64,000 nucleotides of DNA from an uncultured Candidatus Saccharibacteria bacterium (GCA_964616145.1 CAZTRD010000002.1:4553-68552), one strand, 5' to 3'; numbered from the stretch's first letter, positions 6,756 to 61,374 are shown. Numbers and translations are program-made. The notes: generated by a model from the sequence alone, not told the origin.

Positions 6756-6761
6756 GGTAGT

Positions 6762-6798
6762 AGGTGGTTCCCACGGCTATATTCCGTGGGAACCACCT
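6762..6798. repeat. perfect 15-bp inverted repeat AGGTGGTTCCCACGG-ctatatt-CCGTGGGAACCACCT, 7 nt after the priA stop
   Basis: Read directly from the sequence. It forms the left edge of the high-GC island and overlaps the stop codon of the minus-strand 37-aa peptide. Confidence 0.8.
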
Positions 6799-6890
6799 CT
6801 CATTATCACCAGGGCCAAGATGCCCAAGAAAGCGAGGACGAATGCGCTAAACGAGATGATAATCCCCCACACCCTCCTTGTTTTCTTCAT
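6777..6890 (-). CDS. 37-aa single-TM peptide MKKTRRVWGIIISFSAFVLAFLGILALVIMRGGSHGI (high-GC island A)
   Basis: ATG at 6890 preceded by GGGAGGG, then a basic N-terminus and a 22-residue hydrophobic helix. The stop lies inside the palindrome. Not in the ORF track (<60 aa). Confidence 0.35.
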   Translation of the reverse strand: MKKTRRVWGIIISFSAFVLAFLGILALVIMRGGSHGI

Positions 6891-7074
6891 CTGCCCTCCC
6901 GTGATGGAAAGAATGAGGCCAATTCCTCATTCGAGCTATCTTTATTCTATCATCTTGAAAGGATTCTGCAAATTGAAGGACGCTCTTGATATTGACCAAG
7001 GGGAAATAATGTAATAATAAGAATGTAGCTCCTTGCGAGTTCACAACTATGCAAGGAAAGGGAGATGAGAAGTA

Positions 7075-7614
7075 ATGAAAAGAACTCGAGTGGCCATGGT
7101 TACTGTACCCCTTTTCGGAAGCTCTGGGGTTATCGAGGGAGAAGACGGAACAAGGTGGCCGTATATAGAGCTGGGGGAGCATACTTGCGTTCTCCCGATC
7201 TGTGCAACGGCTGGGTCAGTTCGTATTGGTCTCATTAGAGAGCTGAAGCCGATTCTTGAAGAGGTGCGAACCAAAGTGCCAAGCGACTTCAGAAGAGGTG
7301 AGCCGGACAACGAAGTAGTGGCCAGGGAAATCCTTGTCCGCAAGACAGGAATTGAACAGGGCGATATTCTCCATATTGTCCCGTTCAACTTCCAGACTCC
7401 CGGCTGGCCTCCGAACGTTGTCTTCGACAAATCGAAAAGGTGGCTGGCCTGGACTCGTAGTCAATGCGGGAGGAAAGTCAGCTGGTTTGATCTAGGAGAA
7501 ATCCAGGCCATGCTGACGGCTAGCGACACACCCATCAAGGATGCCCCGACGTGGCATCTGCTTGCCTGGATCGTCATGCAATACGACCAGGGGAGTCTTC
7601 CAGGTGAGCCGTGA
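7075..7614 (+). CDS. hypothetical 179-aa protein in a high-GC island; weak Nudix-box-like segment GEPDNEVVAREILVRKTGI
   Basis: Codon usage is high-GC, unlike the flanks. An AAAGGGAG SD-like element lies upstream. An intrinsic terminator follows immediately. The antisense and overlapping ORFs in this island are GC artefacts. Confidence 0.45.
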   Translation: MKRTRVAMVTVPLFGSSGVIEGEDGTRWPYIELGEHTCVLPICATAGSVRIGLIRELKPILEEVRTKVPSDFRRGEPDNEVVAREILVRKTGIEQGDILHIVPFNFQTPGWPPNVVFDKSKRWLAWTRSQCGRKVSWFDLGEIQAMLTASDTPIKDAPTWHLLAWIVMQYDQGSLPGEP

Positions 7615-7626
7615 ACTCAAACGAAG

Positions 7627-7667
7627 ACGGACCGCCCCAATTTCTAGGGTGGTCCGTTTCTTTTTTT
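7627..7667 (+). terminator. rho-independent terminator (ACGGACCGCCC...GGGTGGTCCGT followed by TTTCTTTTTTT)
   Basis: 11-bp GC-rich stem with one G-U pair and a 10-nt T tract, 13 nt after the stop of the 179-aa gene. Confidence 0.65.
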
Positions 7668-7684
7668 ATATCTCAATTTCGCTA

Positions 7685-18598: not shown

Positions 18599-20098
18599 TT
18601 AAATTCCCAGATTAACAATAGGTCTTTGTTTAGTCCAAGGAAAAGAAATAATTAGCTGTAACCCCGAAACATTTTTCGGAACCTCCCAAAAAATAGAACC
18701 TATCGCGACAGATGCAAACGTATAGCTCTCTGGCTGCACGGTTCCAAAGTCAAGCGAAGGAGATTGTAATGGAAGAGTCATATTTTGGGCTTTATTTTCT
18801 TGATCTATCAATACAAAACACGAAGATGTATAAGAAATCGGTTCGTTGCTAATGTCTACGATACTTATCTCAGCTGCGACATATTTATATCCATCTTTCG
18901 GTTTATAGAGATCCAAATTGGACGCATCAAAGTCGGAAAATCTATGTACCCTAATGGCTAATTTGTCTTCTATTTGGATTCTGTCTCCGAGATTATAAAT
19001 TTTAGGCAGTTCTTGTTTAACTTCACTAGATTTATTGGTTGTTGGTTTCTCGACGGATGGTTGGATGGGCTCCAATAAAACCTTATATATTTCATTAGTT
19101 CCAGTTTTGCCTATATTCAGACTATAATTTATAGCATCTTTTGGTATTTCATAGACAAAAAATCCATTTTCTTTTATATCAGGCGATAGTTTTCGTTGTT
19201 CAAAATAATTATCGATGCCTCCTATCACACCATCATACTCTTCATATTGTCGTCCCTTATCGTCAATCAGAAGAGCCCCATTAGTATTAGTAAATACGAA
19301 AGGCATATTTGTGGTATTGGTGATATCTAAGTTTATTACGACAAATTTTGTGTTTTCTTTAGCTACTTTCGGCGTCCCATAACTGCTACTTATTGTCTGT
19401 TTTTCTTCTACCTTATTTACTCTAAACTTTAAGGTAGTCAGCTGAATTTCATCTCCTATGTTTTTTTCTATAATGATAGATTTTTTGGGCTCCGTTTGTC
19501 CGTTTTCTTCTGTTGAAGTTGATCCCGATTGGGACTCATTAGGCATAAGGTTTGCAAACCTTTCTATTCTTGAAATTATCCAATATCGTTCTCCCACCTT
19601 CTTGGTAAAAACAATTCTAGCATCGTTGGGTAATTCGATATAAGCGGAACCACCTTGTTTCTTAAGATTCTTTTGTTGCCAAGTGTTGAGCCAAAAATTT
19701 CCTTTTAAGCTAATAGTTTCTCCTTCTGTTGGAATCGCAAACCAACTTTCTACGCCTTTTTCTACTTGTTCTTTCACAACAGGTTTCATGCTTTCAGCTA
19801 TCTGAAATCCAAACATCATATCAAGCGCTTCAAATCCTTGTATCCCAGAAGTATCGTTTACAAACTTACTTTTCAAATCCGTCCATACACCTTCAGATAT
19901 CGCGTCAATATCTATATATTTAAATCCTAAATCTGTGTTATGTGTTTCGATAGCTTTTTTAATCTGTCCAACGCTATATTCTGGTGTTCCCATAAACCGA
20001 TAGTGCCTGACGCCAATCGTTCCTAACACAACAACAATTATTACTATTATTATTAAAGCAATTTTAATTTTTTTATTTATGATTTGTCGTTTAAACAT
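18599..20098 (-). CDS. hypothetical membrane-anchored protein; likely start at MFKRQIINKK
   Basis: The 29 N-terminal residues of the tracked ORF are encoded by the antisense of repeat 20109-20281. A TM helix follows the internal Met. Confidence 0.4.
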   Translation of the reverse strand: MFKRQIINKKIKIALIIIVIIVVVLGTIGVRHYRFMGTPEYSVGQIKKAIETHNTDLGFKYIDIDAISEGVWTDLKSKFVNDTSGIQGFEALDMMFGFQIAESMKPVVKEQVEKGVESWFAIPTEGETISLKGNFWLNTWQQKNLKKQGGSAYIELPNDARIVFTKKVGERYWIISRIERFANLMPNESQSGSTSTEENGQTEPKKSIIIEKNIGDEIQLTTLKFRVNKVEEKQTISSSYGTPKVAKENTKFVVINLDITNTTNMPFVFTNTNGALLIDDKGRQYEEYDGVIGGIDNYFEQRKLSPDIKENGFFVYEIPKDAINYSLNIGKTGTNEIYKVLLEPIQPSVEKPTTNKSSEVKQELPKIYNLGDRIQIEDKLAIRVHRFSDFDASNLDLYKPKDGYKYVAAEISIVDISNEPISYTSSCFVLIDQENKAQNMTLPLQSPSLDFGTVQPESYTFASVAIGSIFWEVPKNVSGLQLIISFPWTKQRPIVNLGI

Positions 20099-20108
20099 AA
20101 CTTTTTTT

Positions 20109-20281
20109 ACGATGGCTGTGTGCCCCGGTCTAGAACTTGTACCTATCAGGCCGTTAAAGGGTCCTTGAGCCATAATTCTATCCAAGGATTAACCCGTCTC
20201 GGTCGGGGTCCATATTTAGATTCTAGCATAAAATGAGACAAATGAGACACGGGAAGGGGGTATATCGAAGTGTCTCATTTT
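20109..20281 (+). repeat. about 173-nt repeat element, copy 1. Conserved blocks GCTGTGTGCCCCGGTCTAGAA and GACCCGTCTCGGTCGG, then a terminal 12-bp-stem hairpin AAAATGAGACAC...GTGTCTCATTTT preceded by a TGAGACA direct repeat
   Basis: About 80% identical to 44948-45118 in the same orientation. The hairpin stem is identical in both copies while the loop differs. Confidence 0.8.
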
Positions 20282-44947: not shown

Positions 44948-45118
44948 ACGATGCTGTGTGCCCCGGTCTAGAATTTACACCTATCAAGTCATAGAGGGTC
45001 TTCAAGTTATAATTTCATTCAAGATTTGACCCGTCTCGGTCGGAGCATATATTTCAATTCTAGCACAAAATGAGACAAATGAGACACAGGAAAGGGATAT
45101 ATTGGGGTGTCTCATTTT
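44948..45118 (+). repeat. about 171-nt repeat element, copy 2, directly abutting high-GC island B
   Basis: See 20109-20281. Confidence 0.8.
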
Positions 45119-45126
45119 AAGACAAA

Positions 45127-45160
45127 GCCCCTAGCCTCGGTTTACACCTTAGCTAGGGGC
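45127..45160 (-). terminator. GC-clamp hairpin GCCCCTAGC...GCTAGGGGC, 30 nt after the stop of the 607-aa gene
   Basis: 9-bp stem; a weak T-rich tail on the minus strand. Confidence 0.45.
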
Positions 45161-45189
45161 GGGATCTCTGATCAAGTGGAAATAGCGAC

Positions 45190-47013: not shown

Positions 47014-47209
47014 TACTCCTTCCCTTCTTCATTTTCCACTTGTATCAGATTGACAAGGTGCGCTATCACCCCCTCCTTTAGAAGGTGATTGTTTTGTGAT
47101 TTTAGAATAATCTCTAGAAATAGTCAACGAAGGTTTTTAAATGCTTAGGATTATAAAAAAACTGTTATTTACAAGCATTTTTATTAATTAATAAAAAAAA
47201 TAAATTAAG

Positions 47210-49448: not shown

Positions 49449-50550
49449 TTACCTTAATTTCACTTCCGCTTCTATAAACAAATCAAGATTGCCTTCTAAG
49501 ACGTCTTCCGGGTCTTTGGATTCCACTTCTGTTCTGTAATCTTTAACTAATTTATAAGGATGGATAATATATGAACGAATCTGATTCCCCCACTCCGGAG
49601 AAACTCTTTTTCCTCTTATATCTCGTATCTTTTTTTCTTCTTCCAGCTGTTTTTTCTGAAAAATCTTGGCTAAAAGAATTTCTATGGCTTTTTCTTTATT
49701 CAAAGACAATGATCTTTCGCTCTGGCAAGTTACAGTAATATTGGTTGGAATATGAACAATTCTTATAGCGGTTTCTCTTTTATTTACATACTGGCCTCCT
49801 GGCCCGGATGCTCTGTACGTATCTATCTTCATCTCATCTGGCTTTAAATCAATCGATTTTAACTGGGTTTTTGGCAAAATAGGGGTTATCTCAATAGAAG
49901 CAAAAGAAGTATGCCTTAATTGCTGAGCGGAAAAAGGAGAAATGCGGACTAAACGATGCACCCCTTGTTCCCTTTTCAAGAATCCGTAAGTAAATTTCCC
50001 TGAAATTTCTAAGACAGCTTCTTTAATTCCGGTTTTTCCATCGGAACTTGCTTCTCCAAAATCCTGATCAATTATTTTACTCTTCCAGCCCTTCTTTTGA
50101 ACGTATCTTTGATACATTCTCAAGAGCATTCCTGCCCAATCTTGGGCATCTCTTCCTCCTGCTCCAGAATTAATCTCTAAAATTGCATCTGATTTGTCAT
50201 ATGGCCCAGAAAGAAAGAGAATTTTTTCTTCTTGGGAAATCTTTTTTTGCAAATCATTGAATTTATCCTCTAATTCCTGATAGAAAGCAAAATCCTGATT
50301 CGTCAGCTTATGCAATTCAATATAGTCAGAAATTTCTTTTTCCAATAATTCTATCTTCTTGATAGTTTCTTCCAATTCAAAGAATTTCTTTGATAATTCC
50401 GTCTGTAATTTTAAATCCTCCCAGGTCCTACCTGATTCTAAATCCTTTTTTAATTCTTGGCTTTCAATTTTCTTGCTGGCAATGTCAAAGACAGTCAATT
50501 AATTTTTGAAAGCGTTCCTTAAGTTCCTGTATTTTAGCTGTATCTGGCAT
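49449..50550 (-). CDS. prfB: peptide chain release factor 2 with a programmed +1 frameshift (frame 0 from ATG 50550; shift at CTT TGA C about 50484-50490)
   Basis: SPF and GGQ motifs. The upstream in-frame segment MPDTAKIQELKERFQKLIDCL ends at TGA. The ORF track starts the downstream frame at an artificial TTG. Confidence 0.8.
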
Positions 50551-50631: not shown

Positions 50632-51252
50632 TTACTCCATTTCTAGTATATATTTTAAATATTCAAAATCTCTGAAATTAGAACCAGCGAATTGACGAAT
50701 TTCCTTTGCAGTTCTCTCACTCCTGGCTAAAATAACAACTTCTTTTTTTAATTCTTTTAAATGTTTTAATATCGGCAGGAAATCACCGTCGCCAGATAAG
50801 ATAATAACTCTATCAAATTTATCTTTTTGTTGCATCAGATGAAAAGCCATATCGACATCGCAATTAGCTTTTCTTTTGATCATATCTTCTTGATGATATC
50901 TTTTAACCGGTTTAAGATGTAATTCGTAGCCGAATTGTTTAATCTTGATATAAAACTTTATTCTACTAATATGACGGCTTAAAAGAGTAAGCAATGCTTC
51001 GTCTAAATTTTTATCTTCGTCCTCAATTTTTTTTAATAAGAACTCATATACATCTAGCAGAGGCACCGTTTCATTATCTAAATAATCATACTGAAAATCG
51101 TAAATCTCTACGCCTCCAAAATACAAAAATTTAGAAGCATTATATTTGTCTTTTAAATAATTTAAAAGTTTCTGATAGTCTATTTTCCACCCTAAGCTTT
51201 TTTCACCACCATAAAATAAATTTGATGCGTCTATAAATACAAACGTTTTCAT
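50632..51252 (-). CDS. NYN-domain (LabA-like PIN-fold) protein; start at MKTFVFIDASN
   Basis: FIDASNL...ILSGDGDF motifs. The longer tracked ORF overlaps the tRNA. Confidence 0.6.
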   Translation of the reverse strand: MKTFVFIDASNLFYGGEKSLGWKIDYQKLLNYLKDKYNASKFLYFGGVEIYDFQYDYLDNETVPLLDVYEFLLKKIEDEDKNLDEALLTLLSRHISRIKFYIKIKQFGYELHLKPVKRYHQEDMIKRKANCDVDMAFHLMQQKDKFDRVIILSGDGDFLPILKHLKELKKEVVILARSERTAKEIRQFAGSNFRDFEYLKYILEME

Positions 51253-51267
51253 AAGATTAGAAGTCCG

Positions 51268-51339
51268 AGCCGATGGTCGGACTTGAACCGACAACCTATC
51301 GCTTACGAAGCGATTGCTCTGCCATTGAGCTACATCGGC
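51268..51339 (-). tRNA. tRNA-Thr (anticodon CGU)
   Basis: Hand fold: acceptor GCCGATG/CATCGGC, T-arm GTCGG-TTCAAGT-CCGAC, anticodon loop TTCGTAA. Confidence 0.75.
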
Positions 51340-51395
51340 AGATTATTGCCTTTATTATATCTAAAACAGAGGGTTTTGCAATAAAGAAGACGTTT

Positions 51396-51480
51396 GAGCG
51401 GGTTAGTGGATGACATTAGAACCTGTTGGGAGGATATGGAAAAAAGTTTTTTAGTTCCAAATTATTTTTATAACAATTGA
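51396..51480 (+). repeat. cassette-junction repeat, copy a (GAGCGGGTTAGTGGATGACATTAGAACCTGTT...), a degenerate tRNA-Gly 3'-half-like segment
   Basis: Direct repeat of 52138-52215, 52655-52735 and 53786-53870. Confidence 0.7.
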
Positions 51481-51590
51481 AAAAGCCCTTTTGTGAGAGG
51501 GGCCAGCTCTGTGCTAGGCGGTGCTTGCGATCTCTTCATTAGAGACCTCCCTTCCCGAGTTTACGCAACCTCGGGTCAAAGTACATCGGC

Positions 51591-51710
51591 TTAATCATCT
51601 TCCGTTGATCTGCCCGTTTCTCTCTGGAATCTCAGCGCAAGAAAAGCGATAAGACTCCCGAGCAACATTCCAGCCAGCAGAAGTAGCTCGATTCGCACAT
51701 AGTCCGACAC
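51591..51710 (-). CDS. 39-aa single-TM peptide VSDYVRIELLLLAGMLLGSLIAFLALRFQRETGRSTEDD (GTG start, high-GC)
   Basis: AAGGAGGTG SD 6 nt before the GTG, immediately after the stop of the 86-aa ORF. Not in the ORF track. Confidence 0.35.
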   Translation of the reverse strand: MSDYVRIELLLLAGMLLGSLIAFLALRFQRETGRSTEDD

Positions 51711-51723
51711 TCGGACCACCTCC

Positions 51724-51984
51724 TTACCTGCTATCGATGTAATCCGGGAGACCAAGTCTTTTTCTTAATCTCTCGGCCCTTCCAGAGTTCCTCTTCCCGA
51801 CGTAGAAGATGATCGGATCTGGGCCACCAATTGCATGATTGATCCCGGCCTTCGTGAGGGCTCTATTGAACACCTCCCCATGCCTATAGGTGGCCTGACG
51901 ATCAAAACCATCGTTGCGCCAAACCACAAGCGCAGTCGGATGACAGAACGTCTTCTTCCAAACTATTCTGGTCTGGTCTATCAT
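51724..51984 (-). CDS. high-GC 86-aa hypothetical protein (cassette 1)
   Basis: GAGGAG SD 4 nt before the ATG. Sits between two junction repeats. Confidence 0.4.
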   Translation of the reverse strand: MIDQTRIVWKKTFCHPTALVVWRNDGFDRQATYRHGEVFNRALTKAGINHAIGGPDPIIFYVGKRNSGRAERLRKRLGLPDYIDSR

Positions 51985-52048
51985 TCCGGTCTCCTCTCTG
52001 CCGTAGCAGATCTTTTCTTAATTTTGATCCTAATCTTTTTTATCTATT

Positions 52049-52215
52049 AGTCAACCCCTTTACTTCCCTCTTTCTTAAATACAACAAACTCTTTATAGAA
52101 ACAAAAAATCGCTATTCCAGCGACTTGACTTTACCCTGAGCGGGTTAGTGGATGACATTAGAACCTGTTTTGAGGATAAAGAAGAAGGGTTTTTGATTCC
52201 GAACTTCTAAAATAA
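52049..52215 (+). repeat. cassette-junction repeat, copy b (leader ...AAAAATCGCTATTCCAGCGACTTGACTTT + tRNA-Gly 3'-like segment + distal part)
   Basis: Read from the sequence. Confidence 0.7.
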
Positions 52216-52218
52216 TCT

Positions 52219-52256
52219 TTGCAAAAAGGAAAACGCCCAGATGAAGCAGCGTTTCC
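52219..52256 (-). terminator. hairpin AAACGC-12 nt-GCGTTT plus TCCTTTTTG, downstream of the 67-aa gene
   Basis: Read from the sequence. A related hairpin (GAACGC...GGCGTTT) follows the 117-aa gene at 53876-53901. Confidence 0.5.
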
Positions 52257-52317
52257 CAACGATGTCCAACCGGGCGAGAACGAGCTACTGTCCGTTCGAC
52301 TTGGTCTGACAGAATGG

Positions 52318-52521
52318 TTAGATCATTTCTTTCGGCGGGGCACTTCTCTCCCACCTCTTGAGCTGGTCTTCCATCTCGAAGTAGCGCCTGACCAAATCTA
52401 CTCGAACCGTCAACCCAACCAATGCCGCCTCCGTGGCGCCATCCCATTCTCCGAGAGTGATCTCATCGTTCGGATCGAATCCATTCTCTCGGAGCCATTT
52501 CTGAAACTGCTCTAGACTCAT
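52318..52521 (-). CDS. high-GC 67-aa protein with a peptidoglycan-binding-domain-like motif (cassette 2)
   Basis: GTGGAGGTG SD 5 nt before the ATG. FQKWLRENGFDPNDEITLGEWDGATEAAL resembles PG_binding_1 (L..GY...DG.FG..T..AV). Confidence 0.4.
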   Translation of the reverse strand: MSLEQFQKWLRENGFDPNDEITLGEWDGATEAALVGLTVRVDLVRRYFEMEDQLKRWERSAPPKEMI

Positions 52522-52569
52522 TTGGTCACCTCCACATACTTTCTACAATAGTATTTTTAATATTGCAAT

Positions 52570-52735
52570 ACTTTACTTCTCGCAATCTAAAACTCGATTT
52601 ATCCTCTCCCTAAACAAAAATCGCTTTCCAGCGACTTGACTTTAACCCTGAGCGGGCTAGTGGATGACATTAGAACCTATTGGGAGGATAGTTATAATTG
52701 TTTATTAGTACCGGACTACCCTTTTAACTGATTGC
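52570..52735 (+). repeat. cassette-junction repeat, copy c
   Basis: Read from the sequence. Confidence 0.7.
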
Positions 52736-52789: not shown

Positions 52790-53731
52790 TTATCTTTTCC
52801 TTTCACGATTCTTCAGATATCTATTAAGAGCTTCTTTAGAAGAAACCCAAATCCTACCTTCTTTATGGGCCTCTAGTTTTCCGGCTCTGGCTAACAGGTT
52901 AAGATACTTAGAAGAAAAGCCCGTACTCTTGCTAAGAATTGACAATGGAATAGATTTCTCTTTAGATTGGCTGGAAGGAGTTAATGTTTCAAGATATATA
53001 TCAAGAGATCTTTCCACTGATTGAGCGATAAATTGAATAAATGATTCTGGGTTTTGTTTATCTGCCTTTGATAGCGCTTCATAATATTTCTTTCTGTCAT
53101 TCTTTAAGACAATAGATAATGGATAACCGGCTTGTAAAAGGATAACATTCATCATTAGCCTAGCAGTCCTACCATTACCATCAAAAAATGGGTGAATCGC
53201 AACTATCTTATAATGTACCATAGCTGCTAATTCCACAGGATCAAGTTTATTTCTATTCTTGCCAATCCAAGATACTAAATCCGCCATTAATATTGGAACA
53301 TTAATGGCCTCTGGTGGTTTATAATCAGTACCACCAATAAACACTGAACTGTTTCTATATTTTCCAGCCCATTCTTTATCAACATCCTGAACAACAAGTT
53401 GATGTAATGATCTTATTAATCTTTCTGATATTGTGTTTCTTTTATCATGGGCGATCAATTCATATAAATAATCTAAGGCTTCTTTATGGTTTTTTGCCTC
53501 TAGGTGATCTTTTAATGGTTTCCCCTTTATCGTAATCCCCTCATTTATGACCAGATAGGTTTCTTTTAGAGTTAAACTGTTTCCTTCTATGGCATTAGAA
53601 TTATATGTCATTTCTACCTCAAATCTCTCTTTTATCTTTTGTAGAGCTGTTTTTGGTAAGGGCCTATATGAATTAAGCTTATGCAACTTTTTTTCTAACC
53701 TCTCTTTTATTTTTTTATCTAAATAGATCAT
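52790..53731 (-). CDS. Fic/Doc family protein (AMPylation-type toxin family)
   Basis: HPFFDGNGRTARLMMN Fic motif; host-like AT content; occupies one cassette slot. Confidence 0.8.
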   Translation of the reverse strand: MIYLDKKIKERLEKKLHKLNSYRPLPKTALQKIKERFEVEMTYNSNAIEGNSLTLKETYLVINEGITIKGKPLKDHLEAKNHKEALDYLYELIAHDKRNTISERLIRSLHQLVVQDVDKEWAGKYRNSSVFIGGTDYKPPEAINVPILMADLVSWIGKNRNKLDPVELAAMVHYKIVAIHPFFDGNGRTARLMMNVILLQAGYPLSIVLKNDRKKYYEALSKADKQNPESFIQFIAQSVERSLDIYLETLTPSSQSKEKSIPLSILSKSTGFSSKYLNLLARAGKLEAHKEGRIWVSSKEALNRYLKNRERKR

Positions 53732-53785
53732 ATAATCTTAATATGGTTTAACTATATTTATAGTATATACCATATTAAGGAAAAT

Positions 53786-53870
53786 GGATAGAGTGGATGA
53801 TATTAGAAACTGTTTTGAAGAAAATAAAGTTGAGTTTTTAATTCCGAGTTTCTAAAATTCTGATTATTAA
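53786..53870 (+). repeat. cassette-junction repeat, copy d (more diverged)
   Basis: GAGTGGATGATATTAGAAACTGTTTTGAAG...TTTTTAATTCCGAGTTTCTAAAAT. Confidence 0.55.
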
Positions 53871-53935
53871 ATGAGAAACGCCCAAACAAGAGAGCGTTCC
53901 TCGATAGAGATGCTTCTTGCTGGGCGGAGAACGTG

Positions 53936-54289
53936 CTAAACAACGAGCTCATCCTTCTTGATGGTTCCGTGTCCTATGATCTCGAATTGAAGCTGATCGA
54001 TGTGGGGACACGGATCGGTCGAAGAAGGATCGCAGGAGAAACAGACGGCTCCGAACTCCGCAACTTGAATCCGTTCGGATGACCCGAGAGAAACCTTCAG
54101 CTTCTCTACCTCGGCCAACACCTGGCCTTCTGATATCCGCTCCTTCTTCAACTCTGGCCCCTTGATCGTTCTTTCGCCAACTTTGATCTCGGAAACCAAT
54201 GCCCACTCTGGCGTCAACCTTTCTTGTTTGAGCCACTCCCCAGAAGCCACGTACAGACTGTACAGACGAATCTTCCTTCCATCGGGCAT
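53936..54289 (-). CDS. high-GC 117-aa hypothetical protein with a CFSCDPSSTDPCPH Cys/His cluster (cassette 4)
   Basis: GAAGGAGGT SD 7 nt before the ATG; GC-clamp terminator 53876-53901. Confidence 0.4.
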   Translation of the reverse strand: MPDGRKIRLYSLYVASGEWLKQERLTPEWALVSEIKVGERTIKGPELKKERISEGQVLAEVEKLKVSLGSSERIQVAEFGAVCFSCDPSSTDPCPHIDQLQFEIIGHGTIKKDELVV

Positions 54290-54419
54290 AAGGACAACCT
54301 CCTTCTAAATATACTTTAATTATTTTAACCGAAAAGTCAACCTCTTTACTTTCCTTATTCCTAAATCCAATAAACCCTTATTAGAAACAAAAAATCGCTC
54401 TTCCAGCGACTTGACTTTG

Positions 54420-54490
54420 AGCGGGTGAGCGGAATCGAACCGCCACATTCTCCTTGGGAAGGAGACGCTCTGCCACTAAGCCACACCCGC
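54420..54490 (-). tRNA. tRNA-Gly (anticodon CCC)
   Basis: Hand fold: acceptor GCGGGTG/CACCCGC, T-arm GGCGG-TTCGATT-CCGCT, anticodon stem TCTCC/GGAGA with loop TTCCCAA. Confidence 0.75.
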
Positions 54491-54494
54491 AGAA

Positions 54495-54911
54495 TTATCG
54501 GCCGAATAGGCTGCCAAAGAAATCTTTTAATGTGTCCAGAAAACTTGCTTTAGCATTTACAACAGTTTCTTCTTCCAGTTGCTCATTGCCAAGAATTACT
54601 ACCACCTCCTCCCCCGCCTTTTTATACAATCCTTCTTCTCTCATAATATTCTCTGCATATTCTTGCTGAGATGCTTCATAGAAAATCTTGTTCAATTCTG
54701 CATTCTTTTCCGCCAATTTAGTGACTTCTGTGTTTAAATCAACTAGTTGGGCTTGCATGTCCTGTTTCTTTAAAAACAACCTTACATTTCCAACTATCAA
54801 GAAAAGAATTATGGAAACATTAACGCAGACAATCAAAGCAATGGATATTATTGAATCCCAGTCATGATTTTCTTTTTTTCTTTTTTTTGTTATCATATTG
54901 GTATGAAGCAA
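54495..54911 (-). CDS. septum formation initiator (FtsB/DivIC-like) protein
   Basis: Single TM helix followed by a coiled coil; 138 aa. Confidence 0.45.
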   Translation of the reverse strand: MLHTNMITKKRKKENHDWDSIISIALIVCVNVSIILFLIVGNVRLFLKKQDMQAQLVDLNTEVTKLAEKNAELNKIFYEASQQEYAENIMREEGLYKKAGEEVVVILGNEQLEEETVVNAKASFLDTLKDFFGSLFGR

Positions 54912-55055
54912 ATGAAATCAAAAGATGTTGTAAGAATTGTTTGGATAGTAATAGTAATCTTAGTGGTAATTTCTATGATAGTCCTGACAATCTCTCCTCT
55001 ATTTAGATAATATCCCGGTTATCATTTAAAATCAACTGTCAATAATTAACAGATT

Positions 55056-56843
55056 TTAATCTGTTTTTATTATCTCCCAAAATGTCTCTGGGGGAATAGA
55101 AATCTGCCCTCTTTCTTTTAATTTCTTCTTCCCCTTCTTTTGCTTTTCCAAAAGCTTTCTTTTCCTGGTATAGTCACCTCCATATAGAGGAGCTGTAACA
55201 TCTTTTCTTTTGGCTCTGATCGTTCTCCTGACAATTATCCTTCCATCACATTGAATTTGAATAGGTAATTCAAATAACTGAGCTGGAAGAACTTTTTCCA
55301 GTTTCTCAGCCATTTTTTTAGATTCCCGCATGGATAGATTCCTTGGAACTATTTTTGAGATGGTCTCTTCCACTTTTCCGAGAATCAATATCTCTAATTT
55401 CACCAGATCTGATTTCTGCCAGCCAATGATTCTGTAATCCATTGAAGCATATCCCTGGCTTACGCTTTTTAATCTGTCGTAAAAACCGATGATTATCTCT
55501 CTTAAAGGCATTCTGGCTTGGATAATCAATCTTTCAGGGCTTAAAACATTGGTAGTGGATTCTCTTCCTGTGATTAATTTCAATATCTGATTTAAAAACA
55601 TTGTAGGGGTGATGATCTTTAAATCAACATACTGTTCATATATTTCCTGTATTTCGGAATAGTGGGGCCAATCCTTGGAACTGTATATTATTTCCTCCTG
55701 ATTATTCTTCCTCATTATCTTATACGATACTGAAGGAGAAGAAATTATTAAATCCAGATTAAATTCTCTTTTTAATCTTTCCGTAGTTATCTCTGCATGC
55801 AAAAGCCCCAAAAACCCGCATCTAAAACCTTTTCCTAAAACAGATTTTGATTCCGGCTCAAAAGACAAGGAAGAATCATTCAATTTCAAGCGCAATAGAG
55901 AATCCCTTAAAGTATCCCAATCCTTGGCATCTCTTGGGAAAATACTGGTAAAAACAACTTGCTGGGCCTCCCTGTATCCGGGTAAAGGTTCTACTTTGTT
56001 ATCCGGATCATAGTTAGTTATCGTTTCTCCTATTCTTACTAAACTGGGGTCTTTAATTCCCAAAGCTACATATCCTATCTCCCCGTCTTCAAGTTTTTGT
56101 TTGGCTACTAATTTAGGAGAAAACCAACCAACTTCTTTGGCTTTGACTCTCATGTTCTGCCTTATCAAAAACAAATCATCTTGAATTTTAATTTCTCCCT
56201 GGAATATCCTCACATATGCGATAACTCCTAAAAAAGAATCATATTTGGAATCAAAAATCAAAGCTTTTAATATTTCTGATCCTTCCTTTTTAGGAGGAGG
56301 AATTCTTTTGATCACTTCTTGGATGATTAATGGTACATTTTGTCCTGTTTTGGCTGAAATTTTTAAAATATCATTGTCATCAACAGGCAAAATTTCTTTG
56401 ATTTCTTCTATTGCTTCATCTACTCTTGCCTGAGGCATGTCAATCTTATTCACCACCGGGATTATCTTCAAATCTTCCTTTTCAGCCAACTCCAGATTAG
56501 CCAATGTCTGGGCCTGCACTCCTGTAGCCGCATCTATCAAAAGAATGGCTCCTTCTACAGCAGCCAAGCTCCTTGATACTTCATATGAAAAGTCAACATG
56601 TCCCGGAGTATCAATTAGGTTAAGGATGTATTCTTCTTTTGAATCATCAATGTAATGCATCCTTACAGGATGCATTTTGATGGTAATCCCCTTCTCATAT
56701 TCCAAATCCATTGAATCCAAAAACTGGGGCCTTAATTTTGCCTTTTCTATTGTATGAGTTAATTCCAAAAGCCGATCTGCTAATGTAGATTTTCCATGAT
56801 CAATATGGGCTATAATGCTGAAATTCCTAATTCTTTTTTCCAT
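55056..56843 (-). CDS. lepA: elongation factor 4 (LepA)
   Basis: NFSIIAHIDHGKSTLADRLLE G1 motif; 595 aa; LepA C-terminal domain. Confidence 0.9.
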   Translation of the reverse strand: MEKRIRNFSIIAHIDHGKSTLADRLLELTHTIEKAKLRPQFLDSMDLEYEKGITIKMHPVRMHYIDDSKEEYILNLIDTPGHVDFSYEVSRSLAAVEGAILLIDAATGVQAQTLANLELAEKEDLKIIPVVNKIDMPQARVDEAIEEIKEILPVDDNDILKISAKTGQNVPLIIQEVIKRIPPPKKEGSEILKALIFDSKYDSFLGVIAYVRIFQGEIKIQDDLFLIRQNMRVKAKEVGWFSPKLVAKQKLEDGEIGYVALGIKDPSLVRIGETITNYDPDNKVEPLPGYREAQQVVFTSIFPRDAKDWDTLRDSLLRLKLNDSSLSFEPESKSVLGKGFRCGFLGLLHAEITTERLKREFNLDLIISSPSVSYKIMRKNNQEEIIYSSKDWPHYSEIQEIYEQYVDLKIITPTMFLNQILKLITGRESTTNVLSPERLIIQARMPLREIIIGFYDRLKSVSQGYASMDYRIIGWQKSDLVKLEILILGKVEETISKIVPRNLSMRESKKMAEKLEKVLPAQLFELPIQIQCDGRIIVRRTIRAKRKDVTAPLYGGDYTRKRKLLEKQKKGKKKLKERGQISIPPETFWEIIKTD

Positions 56844-58470
56844 ATTTTAATCCGATCGTATGAAGAAATATTTTCAACTCTTTAATTCGCAAAACAAAAC
56901 TCATGAAAAGATATGAAAGGATTCCGAAAATTGTTGTAACGATTGCTTGAATCAGAACTCCTTTGGCTGTTAAAACATTAATACATTGGGCCATTAAAGT
57001 CATGCAGATATACATAATGCCAGACATTACCAAACTGGCTATCAATATCTTTCTTGCTGATTCCCAAACATCCCAAATGGGAAGATTTTTTACTTTTCTT
57101 AATAAAAGAAACAGTAAGAACCCAAACTGCAGGAATCCTGTGATCGTAATGGACAAAGGCAAGCCGATTACTCCAATATTTGATATGTCTTCCAAGCTTA
57201 ACAGCCGGGCAAAGAAATTAGAAAAGAAATTAGAAAAGCTGAATGCCCAGGTTAAAAGCCAGGATAGTCCAACATTTATCGCTAAAGCCAAAACACTATT
57301 GAAGAACGGGGTTTTGGTATCTTTAACGGCAAAAAACATTCTTTGGAAAAATGGGATTAAGGTATATGTAAATATCCCTAAACTGAATAATCCAAGACAG
57401 GCAGCTGTTAATCTTGTATCTATCCAACCAAACTTGCCAGTCCCCAACACAATCCTTACCACCGGACCTCTTAAAAGAAACAAAGCAAAACTTATCGGAA
57501 GAACTAAGAATAATGTCTGTCTGAATGTAGAAGAAAAACTGTCACAGAATTTATCTTTTTCTCCTTCTGCCCAGAATCTGGCTAAAAAAGGATAGGCAGC
57601 TACCGCAAACGATCCTCCAATTATACTTATCGGAAATGATCTCAAATTTTCCGAAAAACTGAAGATTGATATATTCCCTACTCCTATCATGGAAGCAATA
57701 GCTGTCACTATTATCAAATTAAAATGGGATGCCACAGCGCTGAAAGTTCTTGGGATCATCAGCCAGAATATTTTTCTTAAACCAGGAGATTTTAAATTAA
57801 ATATCGGCTTGTACCTAAATCCACTGGATATGACTGATGGAAGTTGCACAAACCAATGCAAAAACGCTCCCAAAACAGCTCCAAAAGCAAGCCCCTTTAA
57901 TCCAAAAATTGGCAAAAAGAAAAATATTCCAAATATTATCCCGAGATTATAAAAGATCGGAGCAATGGCAAAAGAAATAAATCTATTGAAATATTGGAGA
58001 ACGCTGGAAAATATATTCGATATACCAAAAAATATCGGGCTTAAAAATAGGATTCTTGTCAAAGCTACTGCCTGAGCCATATTATCAGGAGTAAATCCGG
58101 GAACTATCAGCTTCATCAGATAAGGGGTGAAAATGAATAGTAATCCGCAGATTATAATTGAAAAAACTAAAAACACATTCAGCAGATTATTTGTTAGCTC
58201 CCAGGCCTTTTTTTCATCTTTGCAGTAGTGCTCAGAAAAGATAGGCAGAAATGCAGCGATTATTCCTCCGGAAATTAAAATCGCAAAAACAAGATTAGGG
58301 ATTCTAAAAGCAGCATAATATATATCTAATTCCTGGCTGGCTCCGAATTTCCCAGCCAGTAATCTATCTCTTAAAAATCCTAACAATCCGCTAGCAATAC
58401 TAGATACGGAAAGAATAATGGCTGCTGAAGTTATGCTTTTTGAAGTTTTTCCTAAAACTCTTTTAATCAT
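56827..58470 (-). CDS. murJ: lipid II flippase MurJ/MviN
   Basis: About 14 TM helices; N-terminal ...LGFLRDRLLAGKFGAS...FRIPNL MurJ pattern; 547 aa. Confidence 0.75.
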   Translation of the reverse strand: MIKRVLGKTSKSITSAAIILSVSSIASGLLGFLRDRLLAGKFGASQELDIYYAAFRIPNLVFAILISGGIIAAFLPIFSEHYCKDEKKAWELTNNLLNVFLVFSIIICGLLFIFTPYLMKLIVPGFTPDNMAQAVALTRILFLSPIFFGISNIFSSVLQYFNRFISFAIAPIFYNLGIIFGIFFFLPIFGLKGLAFGAVLGAFLHWFVQLPSVISSGFRYKPIFNLKSPGLRKIFWLMIPRTFSAVASHFNLIIVTAIASMIGVGNISIFSFSENLRSFPISIIGGSFAVAAYPFLARFWAEGEKDKFCDSFSSTFRQTLFLVLPISFALFLLRGPVVRIVLGTGKFGWIDTRLTAACLGLFSLGIFTYTLIPFFQRMFFAVKDTKTPFFNSVLALAINVGLSWLLTWAFSFSNFFSNFFARLLSLEDISNIGVIGLPLSITITGFLQFGFLLFLLLRKVKNLPIWDVWESARKILIASLVMSGIMYICMTLMAQCINVLTAKGVLIQAIVTTIFGILSYLFMSFVLRIKELKIFLHTIGLKYGKKN

Positions 58471-59164
58471 TGCTTTTTCTTAAAATAATTATCGGGGTTT
58501 GCTGTTCACCCTGCCCTGAAGGATTGTCTTTTAATATTTCTAACATTAAAAATTCTTTTCCTTTTAAATTGCTACTGGTTCCCAGAATATTTCCTCCTAA
58601 ATCATTTACATCAGCAATAATATTCTCAAAACCATACTTTCCTTTTATCCTATCGCACCATTCATTACAATTCTCCGGTCCAAGTATTCCCATCTCCAAA
58701 TATTCCTTAAAGGCCTCCCCATAGAACCCGTCCAATTCATTAACTTGATGGCCAGCTACTTTGTAAAACACTCCCCTCTTTCCAATCAACTTTCCTAAAA
58801 TGCTTAAAAATCCAGCTAGAAATATTCTTGGAAGTCCTGCCATGTTAATAGCTACCTGCATTTTTAAAGGATTCCCTACAGAAAATCCATATGGAGTTTT
58901 TGTCACGAATTTTGAGAGAAATTTAGCCCAAAAACCAACTTTAAGATCTTTTTTGTAAATTACTTTGTTTTGAACCAAAGAAACTATTTTTTGAGAAAAA
59001 GAAACTATATCTGTTTCTTTAATGTTTCCGATAATATATTTCTCAATAATATTATCAATATTTTCCCCCGGTCTGACAAAGTGCGTTTTAACTGGAAATC
59101 TCTGCCAGATTTCCTGGCTCGTCTGAATTTCTATTTTTTTACCATCATTAGCTGAAAAATCCAT
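58463..59164 (-). CDS. CofE-like (F420-0:gamma-glutamyl ligase family) protein
   Basis: DIVSFSQKIVSLVQNKV resembles the CofE N-terminal pattern; weak. Confidence 0.3.
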   Translation of the reverse strand: MDFSANDGKKIEIQTSQEIWQRFPVKTHFVRPGENIDNIIEKYIIGNIKETDIVSFSQKIVSLVQNKVIYKKDLKVGFWAKFLSKFVTKTPYGFSVGNPLKMQVAINMAGLPRIFLAGFLSILGKLIGKRGVFYKVAGHQVNELDGFYGEAFKEYLEMGILGPENCNEWCDRIKGKYGFENIIADVNDLGGNILGTSSNLKGKEFLMLEILKDNPSGQGEQQTPIIILRKSND

Positions 59165-59204
59165 ATATAATCATTCATTCTAATCATATTCTGCCATATA
59201 TTCA

Positions 59205-59240
59205 ATGGATAGAGAAACGGGAAGGCCGTGCCTTCCCGTT
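59205..59240 (-). terminator. GC hairpin AACGGGAAGG-ccgtg-CCTTCCCGTT with TTCTCT tail (high-GC island F)
   Basis: Perfect 10-bp stem. Confidence 0.45.
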
Positions 59241-59268
59241 GCGATCCGCAATGTAGAGCGCTGCTGCC

Positions 59269-59400
59269 CTACGTAGCGCCTCTCGTCTGCGTCCATGCGC
59301 CACGACCTCGAGCGCCGGGGCCGTTACGCGACGTCGTCGGTCTGCCGCTTCCTCCCGTGAGTGCAGTCTGCTTCTTGTTGATAATCTGGCGATACTTCAC
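59269..59400 (-). CDS. high-GC 43-aa Gly/Arg-rich basic peptide VKYRQIINKKQTALTGGSGRPTTSRNGPGARGRGAWTQTRGAT (GTG start)
   Basis: AAGGGGGG SD 5 nt before the GTG; terminator hairpin about 30 nt after the stop. The plus-strand ORF 59228-59446 starts inside the hairpin without an SD and is rejected. Confidence 0.3.
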   Translation of the reverse strand: MKYRQIINKKQTALTGGSGRPTTSRNGPGARGRGAWTQTRGAT

Positions 59401-59479
59401 CGTATCCCCCCTTCGACAGATCGACATGACCAATCTGCTGATTTAATTCTAGCTCTAATTAGTTTTTTTAACAATAAAA

Positions 59480-59800
59480 TTACTTTTTGAATCGAGAGTA
59501 TATTTTATTAAAATCAGAATCCTTGTAGATTATTACGAACCTATCTTTGTACTTTAATCCTTGAATTATTGAACCCGAAAAAAATCCTAATAAAATTGGG
59601 TTATAAATTTTTAGAATTAATAAAATTATCAGTACTATCAAACAATAAATCCAATGATGCATATGTATTCTATAACCACAAATTAAAGGTCTTATTGATT
59701 TTTTAACTTTATCTCCTGCAAATTTTCCCGAGAATACATTACAAAAGGTAAATCCGATTATTAAAGAAATAATAAATAATATTATAAAAAGATAATCCAT
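59480..59800 (-). CDS. small multi-TM membrane protein
   Basis: Hydrophobic, 106 aa. Confidence 0.35.
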   Translation of the reverse strand: MDYLFIILFIISLIIGFTFCNVFSGKFAGDKVKKSIRPLICGYRIHMHHWIYCLIVLIILLILKIYNPILLGFFSGSIIQGLKYKDRFVIIYKDSDFNKIYSRFKK

Positions 59801-59825
59801 ATTCTAATTTTATAGACCCATCTAA

Positions 59826-60908
59826 TTATTTCTTACCTAAATACCAAACATCATTTACTCTTGCTCCACTAGTAATCATCCCTCCCATAATCCATATCTT
59901 TTCATCATATACCATGCATACCGGATCCTCTCTTCCGTCTAAAGTAGTTGTTGTGTTCAATTTAGTGAAATTAATAGCGTCATCAGAATACCACACATCA
60001 TTATATCCTTTGGCATATCCCGACCATCCAGCTAGAATCCAGAATTTATCCTTAAACACCAAAGCACAATGACCGTGTCTTCCCGGATAGTCAGCTTTTT
60101 CTTTTTCTAAAACCCAATCTTTTCCATTAGTTGTGCTCCAAATATCTTTTCTGCCCATAAAGCCGGGGTTTATCCCTCCATGCAGCCACATTTTTCCATC
60201 AAATACCGTTACTGTCTGATCATATCTGGCCAACCATGGAGCATTCTCTATTATTAATTCCCAAGTTATCCCGTCAGAAGAACTCCAGACGTCATTTTTT
60301 GCTCCTTTATCATCAACTCCTCCTATCAGCCATAGCTTATCCTCAAAAGCAACTAAAGAATGCCCTTTTCTGGCAGACCAAGGAGTTGTTGAAGCAACTT
60401 CTGTCCAATTAATTCCATCTACAGAACTCCATACATCATTATGGAATTTCCAATCATCTTTTACCCATCCACCGGCAAGGTATAGTTTGTCTTTTAGAAT
60501 AGTAACAGCATGAGCTCTTCTCTTTCCCCAAGAAGCAGTAGCATTTTCCAGATTCCAAGTGATTCCGTCTATAGAACTCCATATATCGCTTTCATGAACA
60601 TGGCTTTCATATGATAATGCTTTGCTTCCATCTCTCACTCCTCCAAAAACCCAAAGCTTCCCATTAAAAGCTATTCCTGTATGGGCATCTCTCTTCTGCC
60701 AATTGGCAGAAGATGTAGCTTCATTCCAAGTAAGCAATGTTGGATCAAAAACTTCCGCTATTTCCTCTGTAGTTGTAGATTCTTCATTAGTTACATTTAA
60801 AATATCTTCATTCGTATCTTTTTTAAAAAGAGAAAGGATAGAGAAAAGAATTATACAAAAAACACATAGGCCAACCACAATCAAGAAAGATTTAAATGCT
60901 TTATTCAT
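59826..60908 (-). CDS. Kelch-repeat (beta-propeller) protein with an N-terminal TM anchor
   Basis: Six repeats of the W..GG....ND.WSS.DG..W pattern. Confidence 0.6.
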   Translation of the reverse strand: MNKAFKSFLIVVGLCVFCIILFSILSLFKKDTNEDILNVTNEESTTTEEIAEVFDPTLLTWNEATSSANWQKRDAHTGIAFNGKLWVFGGVRDGSKALSYESHVHESDIWSSIDGITWNLENATASWGKRRAHAVTILKDKLYLAGGWVKDDWKFHNDVWSSVDGINWTEVASTTPWSARKGHSLVAFEDKLWLIGGVDDKGAKNDVWSSSDGITWELIIENAPWLARYDQTVTVFDGKMWLHGGINPGFMGRKDIWSTTNGKDWVLEKEKADYPGRHGHCALVFKDKFWILAGWSGYAKGYNDVWYSDDAINFTKLNTTTTLDGREDPVCMVYDEKIWIMGGMITSGARVNDVWYLGKK

Positions 60909-60924
60909 ATATTTATTCTAGCAC

Positions 60925-60958
60925 AAAAGCACAAGGGCAGGACTAAGGTCCTGCCCTT
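60925..60958 (-). terminator. GC hairpin AAGGGCAGGAC-taag-GTCCTGCCCTT with T-rich tail (high-GC island G)
   Basis: Perfect 11-bp stem. Confidence 0.5.
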
Positions 60959-60969
60959 CTCTCTGCGGA

Positions 60970-61293
60970 TCACGGGATCGAGAACGAGAGATCGGTCGTC
61001 TTGCCCGGAAGGATCGGGAGGCCATCCAGGATCATCACTACGTGTCGCTGGTACATGGATGGCAACCCCATCCGACTGAGGCATTGTCCGATAGACCCCA
61101 CGATGATCGCCCTCGAGCAATCGGGCACTTCAAAACTCATCATGAGTTCATTCCCTGGCCCAGTTAGCAGTTCAGGTATCGCTCTGGGCTGCCAACCACC
61201 TTGATCCAACTCTTCAGGTGTTTGGCTCAGCGCGATGGCTCCCGAAGTCTTCGTTTGGTGCCCGTCTGGACATATTGCGACATAGAAGTCCAC
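60970..61293 (-). CDS. high-GC 107-aa hypothetical protein (GTG start); faint HicB-like N-terminal pattern
   Basis: AAGGGGGT SD 5 nt before the GTG at 61293; terminator 12 nt after the stop. Confidence 0.4.
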   Translation of the reverse strand: MDFYVAICPDGHQTKTSGAIALSQTPEELDQGGWQPRAIPELLTGPGNELMMSFEVPDCSRAIIVGSIGQCLSRMGLPSMYQRHVVMILDGLPILPGKTTDLSFSIP

Positions 61294-61374
61294 TCCCTAC
61301 CCCCTTTCTTTAGTTCCAAGATCCGCAAAAGGATCCAAGCCTATTCTATCTCTTTGATTCTTCTTTTGTCAATT

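Follow-up and report, generated by a model that had tools for sequence, protein, structure and literature searches.

Seven GC-rich gene islands in an AT-rich Patescibacteria genome, three of them in a cassette array anchored at a tRNA-Gly gene

The DNA analyzed here is a 64,000-nucleotide stretch from an uncultured Candidatus Saccharibacteria bacterium (GCA_964616145.1 CAZTRD010000002.1:4553-68552), referred to below as the window. Its AT-rich sequence is interrupted by seven short islands of much higher GC content, each carrying one or two genes. These islands had been listed in an original prediction made from the sequence alone, and an unsupervised two-state hidden Markov model (HMM) of GC content, run over the 64-kb window, returned exactly the same seven: island 1 at 6755-7656 (51% GC), island 2 at 44904-47076 (53.5%), island 3 at 51485-52009 (52%), island 4 at 52234-52535 (54%), island 5 at 53879-54302 (53%), and, on the minus strand, island 6 at 59218-59440 (62%) and island 7 at 60929-61304 (57%). 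Their GC content of 50-62% stands against a background of 34.6%, their edges are abrupt in sliding-window composition profiles, and together they amount to 4.9 kb, or 7.7% of the window. Among GTDB species-representative genomes, the best matches of LepA are metagenome-assembled genomes (MAGs) of Patescibacteria at no more than 55% identity, and the host is therefore a bacterium of the candidate phyla radiation (CPR) with no close sequenced sibling in that set.

Junction support had been named in the original prediction as a check, and it is strong. At the junctions of all seven islands, the window is matched at 99.9-100% identity by contigs that come from three assembly pipelines and at least seven samples (ENA/MEGAHIT k141, JGI and Logan; accessions ERZ27248895/920/937/953, 3300028191 and SRR8437217/287, respectively). 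Since independent assemblies agree on every junction, the islands are not chimeric joins, and assembly chimera is ruled out.

Islands 3, 4 and 5 form an array in which an AT-rich Fic gene also takes part. The array's anchor is a tRNA-Gly(CCC) gene (54419-54490), and both lie on the minus strand. Read from the tRNA outward, it consists of cassette 5 (a hairpin with leader, a 117-amino acid (aa) cargo with its terminator, and a degenerate repeat, R'), the Fic gene followed by a repeat, R, cassette 4 (hairpin and leader, 67-aa cargo and terminator, R), and cassette 3 (hairpin and leader, cargo of 86 and 39 aa with terminator, R), beyond which come unique DNA and a tRNA-Thr gene. The leaders comprise the tRNA's own terminator hairpin, a GAAGTAAAG box, -35/-10 elements and a GGAGG Shine-Dalgarno (SD) sequence. 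That of cassette 5 (54290-54418) has its hairpin at 54392-54412 and a TTGACT/TAAAGT promoter-like site, and opens onto a 117-aa ORFan (an open reading frame, ORF, at 53936-54289; SD duplex energy, dG, -12.9 kcal/mol), with R' at 53785-53860. The SoFic-like Fic gene (52790-53731) occupies a cassette position between R' and the next R (52649-52725), which is a decayed copy of the T-arm and acceptor 3' end of tRNA-Gly (GGTTCTAATGTCATCCACTAGCCCGCTCA). Cassette 4 has a P'-type leader (52522-52648) with a hairpin at 52618-52637, a promoter and a GGAGGTG SD, a 67-aa ORFan (52318-52521; dG -13.6), and an R copy at 52137-52215. The leader of cassette 3 (52010-52136; hairpin 52106-52126, promoter-like site TTGACT/TAGGAT) is 82% identical to that of cassette 5 and precedes an 86-aa ORFan (51724-51984) and a peptide of 39 aa with a single transmembrane (TM) segment (51591-51710; GTG start, SD AAGGAGGTGG, dG -16.6). 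The last R of the array, at 51395-51470, gives way to non-repeated DNA (AACGTCTTCTTTATTGC) and tRNA-Thr (51267-51339).

The repeats betray their relation to the anchoring tRNA. R is present in four copies, all within 51.4-53.8 kb, where 0.02 would be expected by chance; three of them align to tRNA-Gly positions 49-72, the T-arm and acceptor 3' end, matching 20 of 23 bases with 5 nt inserted, and the fourth is degenerate. Upstream of the tRNA-matching part, R as read from its sequence keeps an anticodon-loop-like TCCTCCCAA. A functional tRNA can be rejected: ARAGORN and Rfam call none in R, and the 5' acceptor strand is missing. Each cassette thus has two conserved arms, a leader of about 130 nt and a distal R of about 75 nt, which are 80-98% identical between cassettes and loci. 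Leader alignments show similarity up to the start codon and none after it, and the terminators of cassettes 4 and 5 are homologous, so what varies is little more than the ORF and a short 3' untranslated region. Successive repeats are 512 and 742 bp apart, and the cassette units, Fic included, measure 0.5-1.1 kb.

The same module occurs at other tRNA-Gly genes. A metagenome scan for the tRNA 3' end followed by the hairpin returned five loci. Contigs L091 and L094 carry the module behind tRNA-Gly(GCC), the last gene of a Cys-Leu-Val-Phe-Gly tRNA cluster, with a leader that shares 89% identity with the cassette 4 leader and precedes a GC-richer ORF for a 52-aa membrane protein. In L091, the contig that reaches that far, an R copy 97.7% identical to that of the window (52137-52215) follows the 52-aa ORF. 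R is thus unchanged in type at the locus of a different isoacceptor and, by implication, moves together with the cassette. L093 has the module behind tRNA-Gly(TCC), ahead of a GC-rich membrane-protein ORF, and L092, a relative with 72% identity, has an ordinary AT-rich gene after its tRNA-Gly(CCC), hairpin and leader.

Several further observations attach to these loci. Beyond its cassette, L091 (383-2068) carries an AT-rich gene pair, by eye a helix-turn-helix protein with a histidine-kinase-like ATPase (258 aa) and a STAS/DUF4325-like protein (105 aa), and then another GC-rich island (50% GC) encoding a 151-aa protein that looks Nudix-like by eye; GC-rich islands therefore recur elsewhere in the population. 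Between tRNA-Pro and tRNA-Gly(TCC), L093 has a 223-aa AT-rich ORF (618-1289) and, after tRNA-Pro, about 110 nt of 61% GC (1371-1480) with internal repeats (GTCACGCCG...). In a related species (L090, 1-1644), an IS3-family insertion element with ORFs of 163 and 263 aa sits within the terminator hairpin of tRNA-Gly(CCC), a hairpin that appears to be insertion-prone.

A direct difference in cassette content was found in contig L086 (ENA), from the same sample as the window-identical contig L001. It has no single-nucleotide polymorphisms relative to the window over 9.6 kb (54385-64000), islands 6 and 7 included. Directly behind the tRNA-Gly hairpin, its sequence changes to a leader of the P' type with another GC-rich cargo. 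The roughly 60 nt shared with other tRNA-Gly loci at this junction fall well short of the assembler's k (141), and only about 70 nt separate the CCC anticodon from the break, so that the join should be supported by reads. The comparison is one of cassette polymorphism between otherwise identical genomes. The alternative cassette (15500-15734 of L086) contains a 39-aa basic ORF, and a longer frame is interrupted by one in-frame TGA; RF2 is encoded in the window (49449-50498), so TGA should act as a stop, and the cargo may represent a pseudogene or consist of several small ORFs that overlap. Apart from L086, exact-protein look-ups of the host neighbours returned the same arrangement only.

The remaining islands are solitary. 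Island 1 is a two-gene unit between the convergent genes priA (ending at 6755) and a 944-aa surface-protein gene (ending at 7685), and is the same in the independent contigs L004, L099 and L101. It encodes a 37-aa single-TM peptide on the minus strand (6777-6890; SD GGGAGGG, dG -10.8), whose 3' end is overlapped by a 12-bp hairpin (6765-6795; z -4.98), and on the plus strand a 179-aa ORFan (7075-7614; SD AGGGAG) followed by a 13-bp hairpin at about 7625-7659. Among 5.8 billion proteins the 179-aa product matches itself only, and a single-sequence structure model of it was unusable (mean predicted local distance difference test, pLDDT, of 38). The two single-TM mini-peptides of 37 and 39 aa foreseen in the original prediction are both there as ORFs with strong SD sequences. 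Island 6 (223 nt) holds, on the minus strand, an ORF for a 42-aa basic peptide (59269-59397; GTG start, SD GGGGGG; 11-bp hairpin 59216-59240), and its coding status is the least certain of the seven, its overall fold having a z-score of -1.6. Island 7, also on the minus strand, encodes a 107-aa ORFan (60970-61293; GTG start, SD AGGGGG; 11-bp hairpin 60933-60958) behind a promoter-like site, TTGACA-18-TAGAAT at 61343-61372, that is consensus-level by sequence. Around islands 1, 2, 6 and 7 there are no flanking direct or inverted repeats and no target-site duplications of at least 9 nt beyond AT-rich chance matches. No small island ORF, a class for which the original prediction had raised a toxin or small membrane effector function as speculation, has a Pfam family above threshold, and those scanned against PHROGs and PADLOC gave no match.

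The cargo of island 2 is the only island product with a recognizable family. Its 606-aa protein (45190-47010, minus strand; SD GGAAGGAG; consensus-level promoter-like site 47099-47127, hairpin at about 45127-45160) matches Pfam DUF7897 (PF25448) at 53.6 bits against a cut-off of 27, and carries HELGH at 431-435 and EE at 455-456. A full HMMER scan of 1.84 billion representatives gave a family of 183 matches, the best at 42% identity and one named member, 35% identical, from a Patescibacteria MAG. H431, E432, H435, E455 and E456 are conserved across this family, in which HExxH is near-invariant and the EE pair lies 20 residues on. An AlphaFold model built on 60 homologues reached a pLDDT of 94.6, and the top 15 Foldseek matches in the PDB were all dipeptidyl peptidase III (DPP III), led by the Caldithrix enzyme (6eom; probability 1.0, E 3e-11) and followed by those of human, yeast and Bacteroides; a profile search of the PDB also found a weak match to DPP III 5zum (E 9.5e-4). 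From the model, the protein is predicted to be a zincin peptidase with a two-lobe fold like that of DPP III (MEROPS M49), in keeping with the HExxH metallopeptidase-like protein first proposed. It resembles DPP III in this fold, in HExxH and in the downstream EE pair, and differs from it in being only 11-16% identical to the solved structures, in having the pentapeptide HELGH where the canonical M49 motif is the hexapeptide HExxGH, and in belonging to a rare family without a characterized member.

The low-coordinate tail of the island 2 segment (44904-45100) was rejected as foreign cargo and is instead a second copy of a host promoter and leader. This host-type element (44925-45100, minus strand) is paralogous, at about 80% identity, to one at 20040-20265 (minus strand); both have the promoter GTGTCTCATTTGTCTCATTTTrTGCTAGAAT followed by a GC-rich leader of about 105 nt with CCGACCGAGACGGGT ... 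GACCGGGGCACACAGC. The copy at about 20.0-20.3 kb precedes a DUF4352 membrane-protein gene, whose true ATG lies near 20037 and not at the listed TTG at 20185, and no obvious gene follows the copy at 44925-45100. The latter has no Rfam match, and the repeat is a candidate cis-regulatory RNA or small RNA.

Island genes and host genes differ sharply in their translation signals. SD strength was calculated as the duplex energy of the 22 nt upstream of each start with CACCUCCUUA, the 3' end of the host 16S rRNA lying outside the window. All nine island ORFs, the GTG-initiated 39-aa and 42-aa peptides among them, fall between -8.3 and -16.6 kcal/mol, whereas the 51 host ORFs have a median of -0.4 and a strongest value of -7.0, and none has a strong SD (Fisher p = 2e-8, computed with the first eight island ORFs). 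The contrast drawn in the original prediction, a strong SD on every island gene and none on its host neighbours, is therefore confirmed; GTG starts occur in 3 of the 9. Its further claim that a GC-clamp hairpin ends each island gene holds for seven of the eight units, where stems of 10-13 bp stand behind the stop codons (five units have fold z-scores between -4.1 and -5.0 and one has -3.6, with the whole downstream region at island 4 reaching only -1.3), and not for island 3, where the hairpin is weaker (region z -0.7).

In the P'-type cassettes the SD sits within the conserved AT-rich leader common to the cassettes, outside the GC-rich cargo, and this placement in the sequence suggests that SD-led initiation is used in the lineage for these units. 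Host genes start in AT-rich, presumably unstructured leaders, and GC-rich mRNAs are more structured at the start codon and may therefore need a strong SD; plausibly, such mRNAs initiate poorly in a host that relies on unstructured leaders. SD-less host genes include rpoB, rpoC and lepA, an extended -10-like TGnTAGAAT stands close upstream of many host genes, and weak SD use was seen in the other Patescibacteria loci fetched as well.

The composition of the islands is foreign down to their proteins. GC at the first, second and third codon positions (GC1, GC2, GC3) of island ORFs is about 0.57, 0.41 and 0.60, the normal coding pattern of a genome of about 55% GC, against a host GC3 of about 0.3. 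The GARP/FYMINK ratio is 1.0-1.4 in island proteins and 0.3-0.7 in host proteins; because amino-acid composition itself is of the GC type, the bias must be old enough to be inscribed in the proteins. The dinucleotide distance delta* between island 2 and the concatenated islands 3-7 is 51, which is within the range for 2-kb pieces of the same genome (40-125) and under that for different genomes of similar GC (75-268), whereas islands and host are about 185 apart (157-188 with the cargo of other loci). GC-rich cargo at the related loci stands at 67 from the window islands and 157 from the host. The signature favours one reservoir, or a few similar ones, in a manner that is suggestive and not conclusive because the sequences are short, and islands 1, 2, 6 and 7, which share their signature with the cassette cargo, may draw on the same pool.

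Composition thus speaks for the common foreign, high-GC source of the original prediction, while searches for the donor itself came back empty. A word-index search of 5.8 billion proteins, a collection that takes in samples carrying this organism, with the 606-aa and 179-aa proteins and a 14-sequence profile returned the queries themselves and one match at 22% identity. Scans of IMG/VR with three island proteins, the 606-aa family profile and two module patterns gave no match, nor did tblastn of the 606-aa protein against GenBank phages and PLSDB plasmids, or PHROGs and PADLOC for the island ORFs scanned; a phage or plasmid origin of the islands is unsupported by these searches. Dinucleotide comparison with 80 fetched loci yielded no convincing nearest genome, and loci from high-GC CPR bacteria (Moranbacteria, 53-55% GC) are not close to the islands by dinucleotides and make only moderate use of SD sequences.

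The reading that we favour, with a probability of roughly 60%, is that all seven islands were acquired horizontally from a coherent GC-richer pool (about 50-60% GC), islands 3-5 and Fic as site-specific tRNA-Gly cassettes and islands 1, 2, 6 and 7 as solitary insertions. Each island would be a self-contained expression unit, in which one or two small ORFs stand between a sigma-70-like promoter with a strong SD and a GC hairpin. Cassettes would enter by site-specific recombination between an att-like R sequence and the ACCCGCTCA end of any tRNA-Gly gene, through a recombinase that would act in trans on non-autonomous units, a placement adopted because the cassettes encode none. New cassettes would join next to the tRNA and shift older ones outward, and the solitary islands may owe their fixation to illegitimate recombination or to a recombinase whose action produces no long repeats. 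Four features together give the classic picture of att-site recombination with accretion at a tRNA: the complete gene accompanied by direct repeats of part of it, stacked units, the same arms at three ACCCGCTCA-ended isoacceptor genes, and a strain difference placed exactly next to the tRNA. What is unusual in the array is its small scale, the lack of a recombinase in the units, and an expression leader within the conserved arm. The dedicated insertion mechanism that had been suggested for the islands as a whole is accordingly upheld for islands 3-5, through the tRNA-Gly array, its tRNA-derived repeats and the cassette polymorphism, and is not borne out for islands 1, 2, 6 and 7, which lack flanking repeats.

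Several results weigh against this account. Pfam, PHROG and PADLOC scans of the array ORFs and their neighbours revealed Fic, NYN and HNH proteins only, and thus no recombinase in or beside the array. The sole recombinase of the window is a large serine recombinase (41425-42780) in a phage-derived block 8.6 kb away, unlinked to the cassettes, and no tyrosine recombinase domain was detected among the roughly 60 large window ORFs scanned, which are nearly all of them. Neither an excised circle nor an empty tRNA-Gly site was seen in the assembled contigs. L086 ends 290 nt past the divergence, a length that leaves replacement of cassette 5 and addition before it undistinguished. Islands 1, 2, 6 and 7 showed no polymorphism or alternative arrangement in the contigs retrieved, and their mobility is deduced from composition only. 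No genome, phage or plasmid carrying any island gene turned up in the searches run, and the case for a common source is a compositional one drawn from short sequences.

For the swapping of cassettes, homologous recombination is a serious alternative, even if we think it unlikely to be the whole answer. CPR bacteria carry competence-type uptake systems, and cassettes could be exchanged without a dedicated recombinase if DNA taken up from relatives recombined through the leader and R arms, the tRNA-like repeats being only leftovers of old duplications. The length and identity of the arms would permit such integrase-free exchange, which is a further point against our reading; no integrase is present in the array, and L086 diverges exactly at the end of the shared hairpin. 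Exchange of this kind, however, leaves unexplained why the same arms stand beside three different tRNA-Gly isoacceptor genes and why the repeats end precisely at the tRNA 3' end sequence, both of which are hallmarks of att sites, and it does not account for the first entry of unrelated ORFs between the arms.

The islands might also be fragments of a GC-richer host or neighbour of the epibiotic CPR cell, integrated at random by illegitimate recombination and kept only in intergenic gaps, an explanation that needs no special mechanism or reservoir and that we nevertheless regard as rather improbable. It accords with a composition typical of a genome of about 55% GC that uses SD sites, with the lack of repeats around islands 1, 2, 6 and 7, and with the frequency of horizontal gene transfer in Patescibacteria, in which genomic islands too are abundant (PMC12455944). 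Yet the two island proteins searched match only themselves even in a collection that includes the organism's own samples, and the 606-aa family is rare (183 of 1.84 billion representatives) and distant, with a single named member, itself from Patescibacteria. Random fragments would rarely be complete promoter-SD-ORF-terminator units, as seven out of seven are here, and would not be expected to bring the conserved arms of islands 3-5.

It is very unlikely that the GC-rich patches are structured non-coding RNA genes with accidental ORFs. In AT-rich genomes structured RNAs do show up as GC peaks; the repeated leader at 44925-45100 is such a case, tRNAs make local GC peaks in the window, and island 6 is a mere 223 nt of 62% GC with a low-complexity basic ORF. 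Against this, the islands are filled by ORFs of 606, 179, 117, 107, 86 and 67 aa that show a GC3 > GC1 > GC2 coding pattern and have SD sites at the proper spacing, homologues exist for the 606-aa product, whose DPP III-like model is confident, and even the fold of island 6 as a whole is unexceptional. At the gathering threshold an Rfam scan of the window gave RNase P, LOOT and three tRNAs only, none in the islands, and at a relaxed threshold two stretches (44600-45200 and 59150-59500) gave no credible family match. Finally, an assembly or binning artefact in which reads of a GC-rich organism were joined chimerically into a CPR contig would suit the sharp compositional edges and is effectively refuted by the agreement of at least seven samples and three pipelines through every junction.

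The setting of the islands also departs from what had been expected. They had been thought to sit in housekeeping operons, whereas the genes beside them are a mixture of cellular and accessory ones, mostly accessory or defence-type genes and tRNAs: priA, the large surface protein, an HNH endonuclease, a PDC-S11-like protein, an NYN nuclease, tRNA-Thr, the SoFic-like Fic and tRNA-Gly, and further MurJ and F420-ligase-like, Kelch-like and Gmad2 proteins. Four AT-rich genes match defence models, namely PDC-S11-like (43539-44615; 1.7e-17), HNH/type IV restriction-like (47210-47725; 2.5e-5), NYN (50632-51294; 8.3e-14) and SoFic (52790-53731; 8.9e-44), and 43-55 kb looks like a tRNA-studded defence and variable region. 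From this neighbourhood, our low-confidence working guess is that the small island products have accessory roles in conflict, defence or the envelope. Next to the region lies the phage-derived block (37435-42933; about 40-45% GC), which encodes a DNA methyltransferase with a ParB domain, a second methyltransferase, the small and large terminase subunits and the large serine recombinase. A LOOT RNA (Rfam RF03000, 93.8 bits; 42820-42933) directly follows its genes. The block showed no structural phage genes and is possibly a remnant, or else an element of the satellite type.

How Patescibacteria, with their tiny genomes and their dependence on other cells, acquire and trade genes is poorly understood; the present locus shows gene flux at the scale of a single ORF. 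Cassettes of 0.5-0.75 kb at tRNA-Gly genes differ between otherwise identical genomes, the foreign cargo comes from a compositionally coherent, GC-richer pool sampled nowhere else, and every foreign gene has a strong SD in a host whose own genes use none. A bolder proposal, which we hold only tentatively and consider on present evidence improbable, is that the tRNA-Gly modules are a gene-capture and expression platform specific to a lineage of Patescibacteria and analogous to an integron: the arm would give terminator insulation, promoter and SD, and through the tRNA-derived recombination site a recombinase encoded elsewhere would capture, stack and swap single foreign ORFs, mostly drawn from a GC-rich reservoir replicon, at all tRNA-Gly genes. 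On this view the solitary islands are older products of the same pool, or ones that escaped. If this were true, it would amount to an integron-like capture system built on a tRNA attachment site, would offer a handle on the rules of translation initiation in SD-poor bacteria, and could possibly furnish a natural landing pad with expression leader for engineering CPR bacteria. If it fails, the locus is still a clean and well-documented case, in a CPR genome, of accretion linked to a tRNA and of moron-like islets.

Among known systems, the closest parallel is with tRNA islands that grow by tandem accretion, such as the tycheposons of Prochlorococcus; in streamlined genomes, partial-tRNA repeats and tandem accretion of integrative elements have been described (bioRxiv 10.1101/2020.12.28.424599). 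The array shares with them an intact tRNA at one end, direct repeats of the tRNA 3' end at the unit boundaries, elements stacked at one tRNA, presence and absence at the strain level in an identical background (L086, at the att site of near-identical genomes), a streamlined AT-rich host and defence-type cargo nearby. It differs in that its units are only 0.5-1.1 kb, hold one or two small ORFs and encode no integrase, excisionase or replication genes, in having a promoter and SD expression leader within the conserved arms, and in that three tRNA-Gly isoacceptor genes share the module and no autonomous parent element was found.

Integron cassettes offer a second comparison. As in integrons, tiny and mostly single-ORF units are arrayed with a conserved recombination-type repeat between them, ORF boundaries lie tight against the conserved sequence, the cargo is unlike the host in composition, and the recombinase would be outside the cassette. 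Unlike integrons, the array is anchored at a tRNA gene, and the window contains neither IntI with attI and a Pc promoter nor attC sites, that is, imperfect inverted repeats with the R''/R' core GTTRRRY after each cassette; its repeats are a tRNA 3' remnant, a terminator hairpin and a promoter leader and not attC-like imperfect palindromes, a judgement made without an attC covariance model. Moreover, integron cassettes usually lack a promoter, whereas each cassette here brings a leader with promoter and SD. The solitary islands 1, 2, 6 and 7, in turn, recall phage morons, which are units with their own promoter and terminator and a deviant GC content (PMC3594210): they too have a predicted promoter and terminator, a GC content unlike their flanks, and a position between two genes. 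They lie, however, in a bacterial chromosome outside any prophage, flanked by cellular genes (priA and those for the surface, F420-ligase-like, Kelch-like and Gmad2 proteins), the phage-derived block at 37.4-42.8 kb is near yet separate from them, and the island proteins searched have no phage homologues. The locus is best classed as a miniature accretion array that is anchored at a tRNA, lacks an integrase and shows integron-like features, accompanied by moron-like islets.

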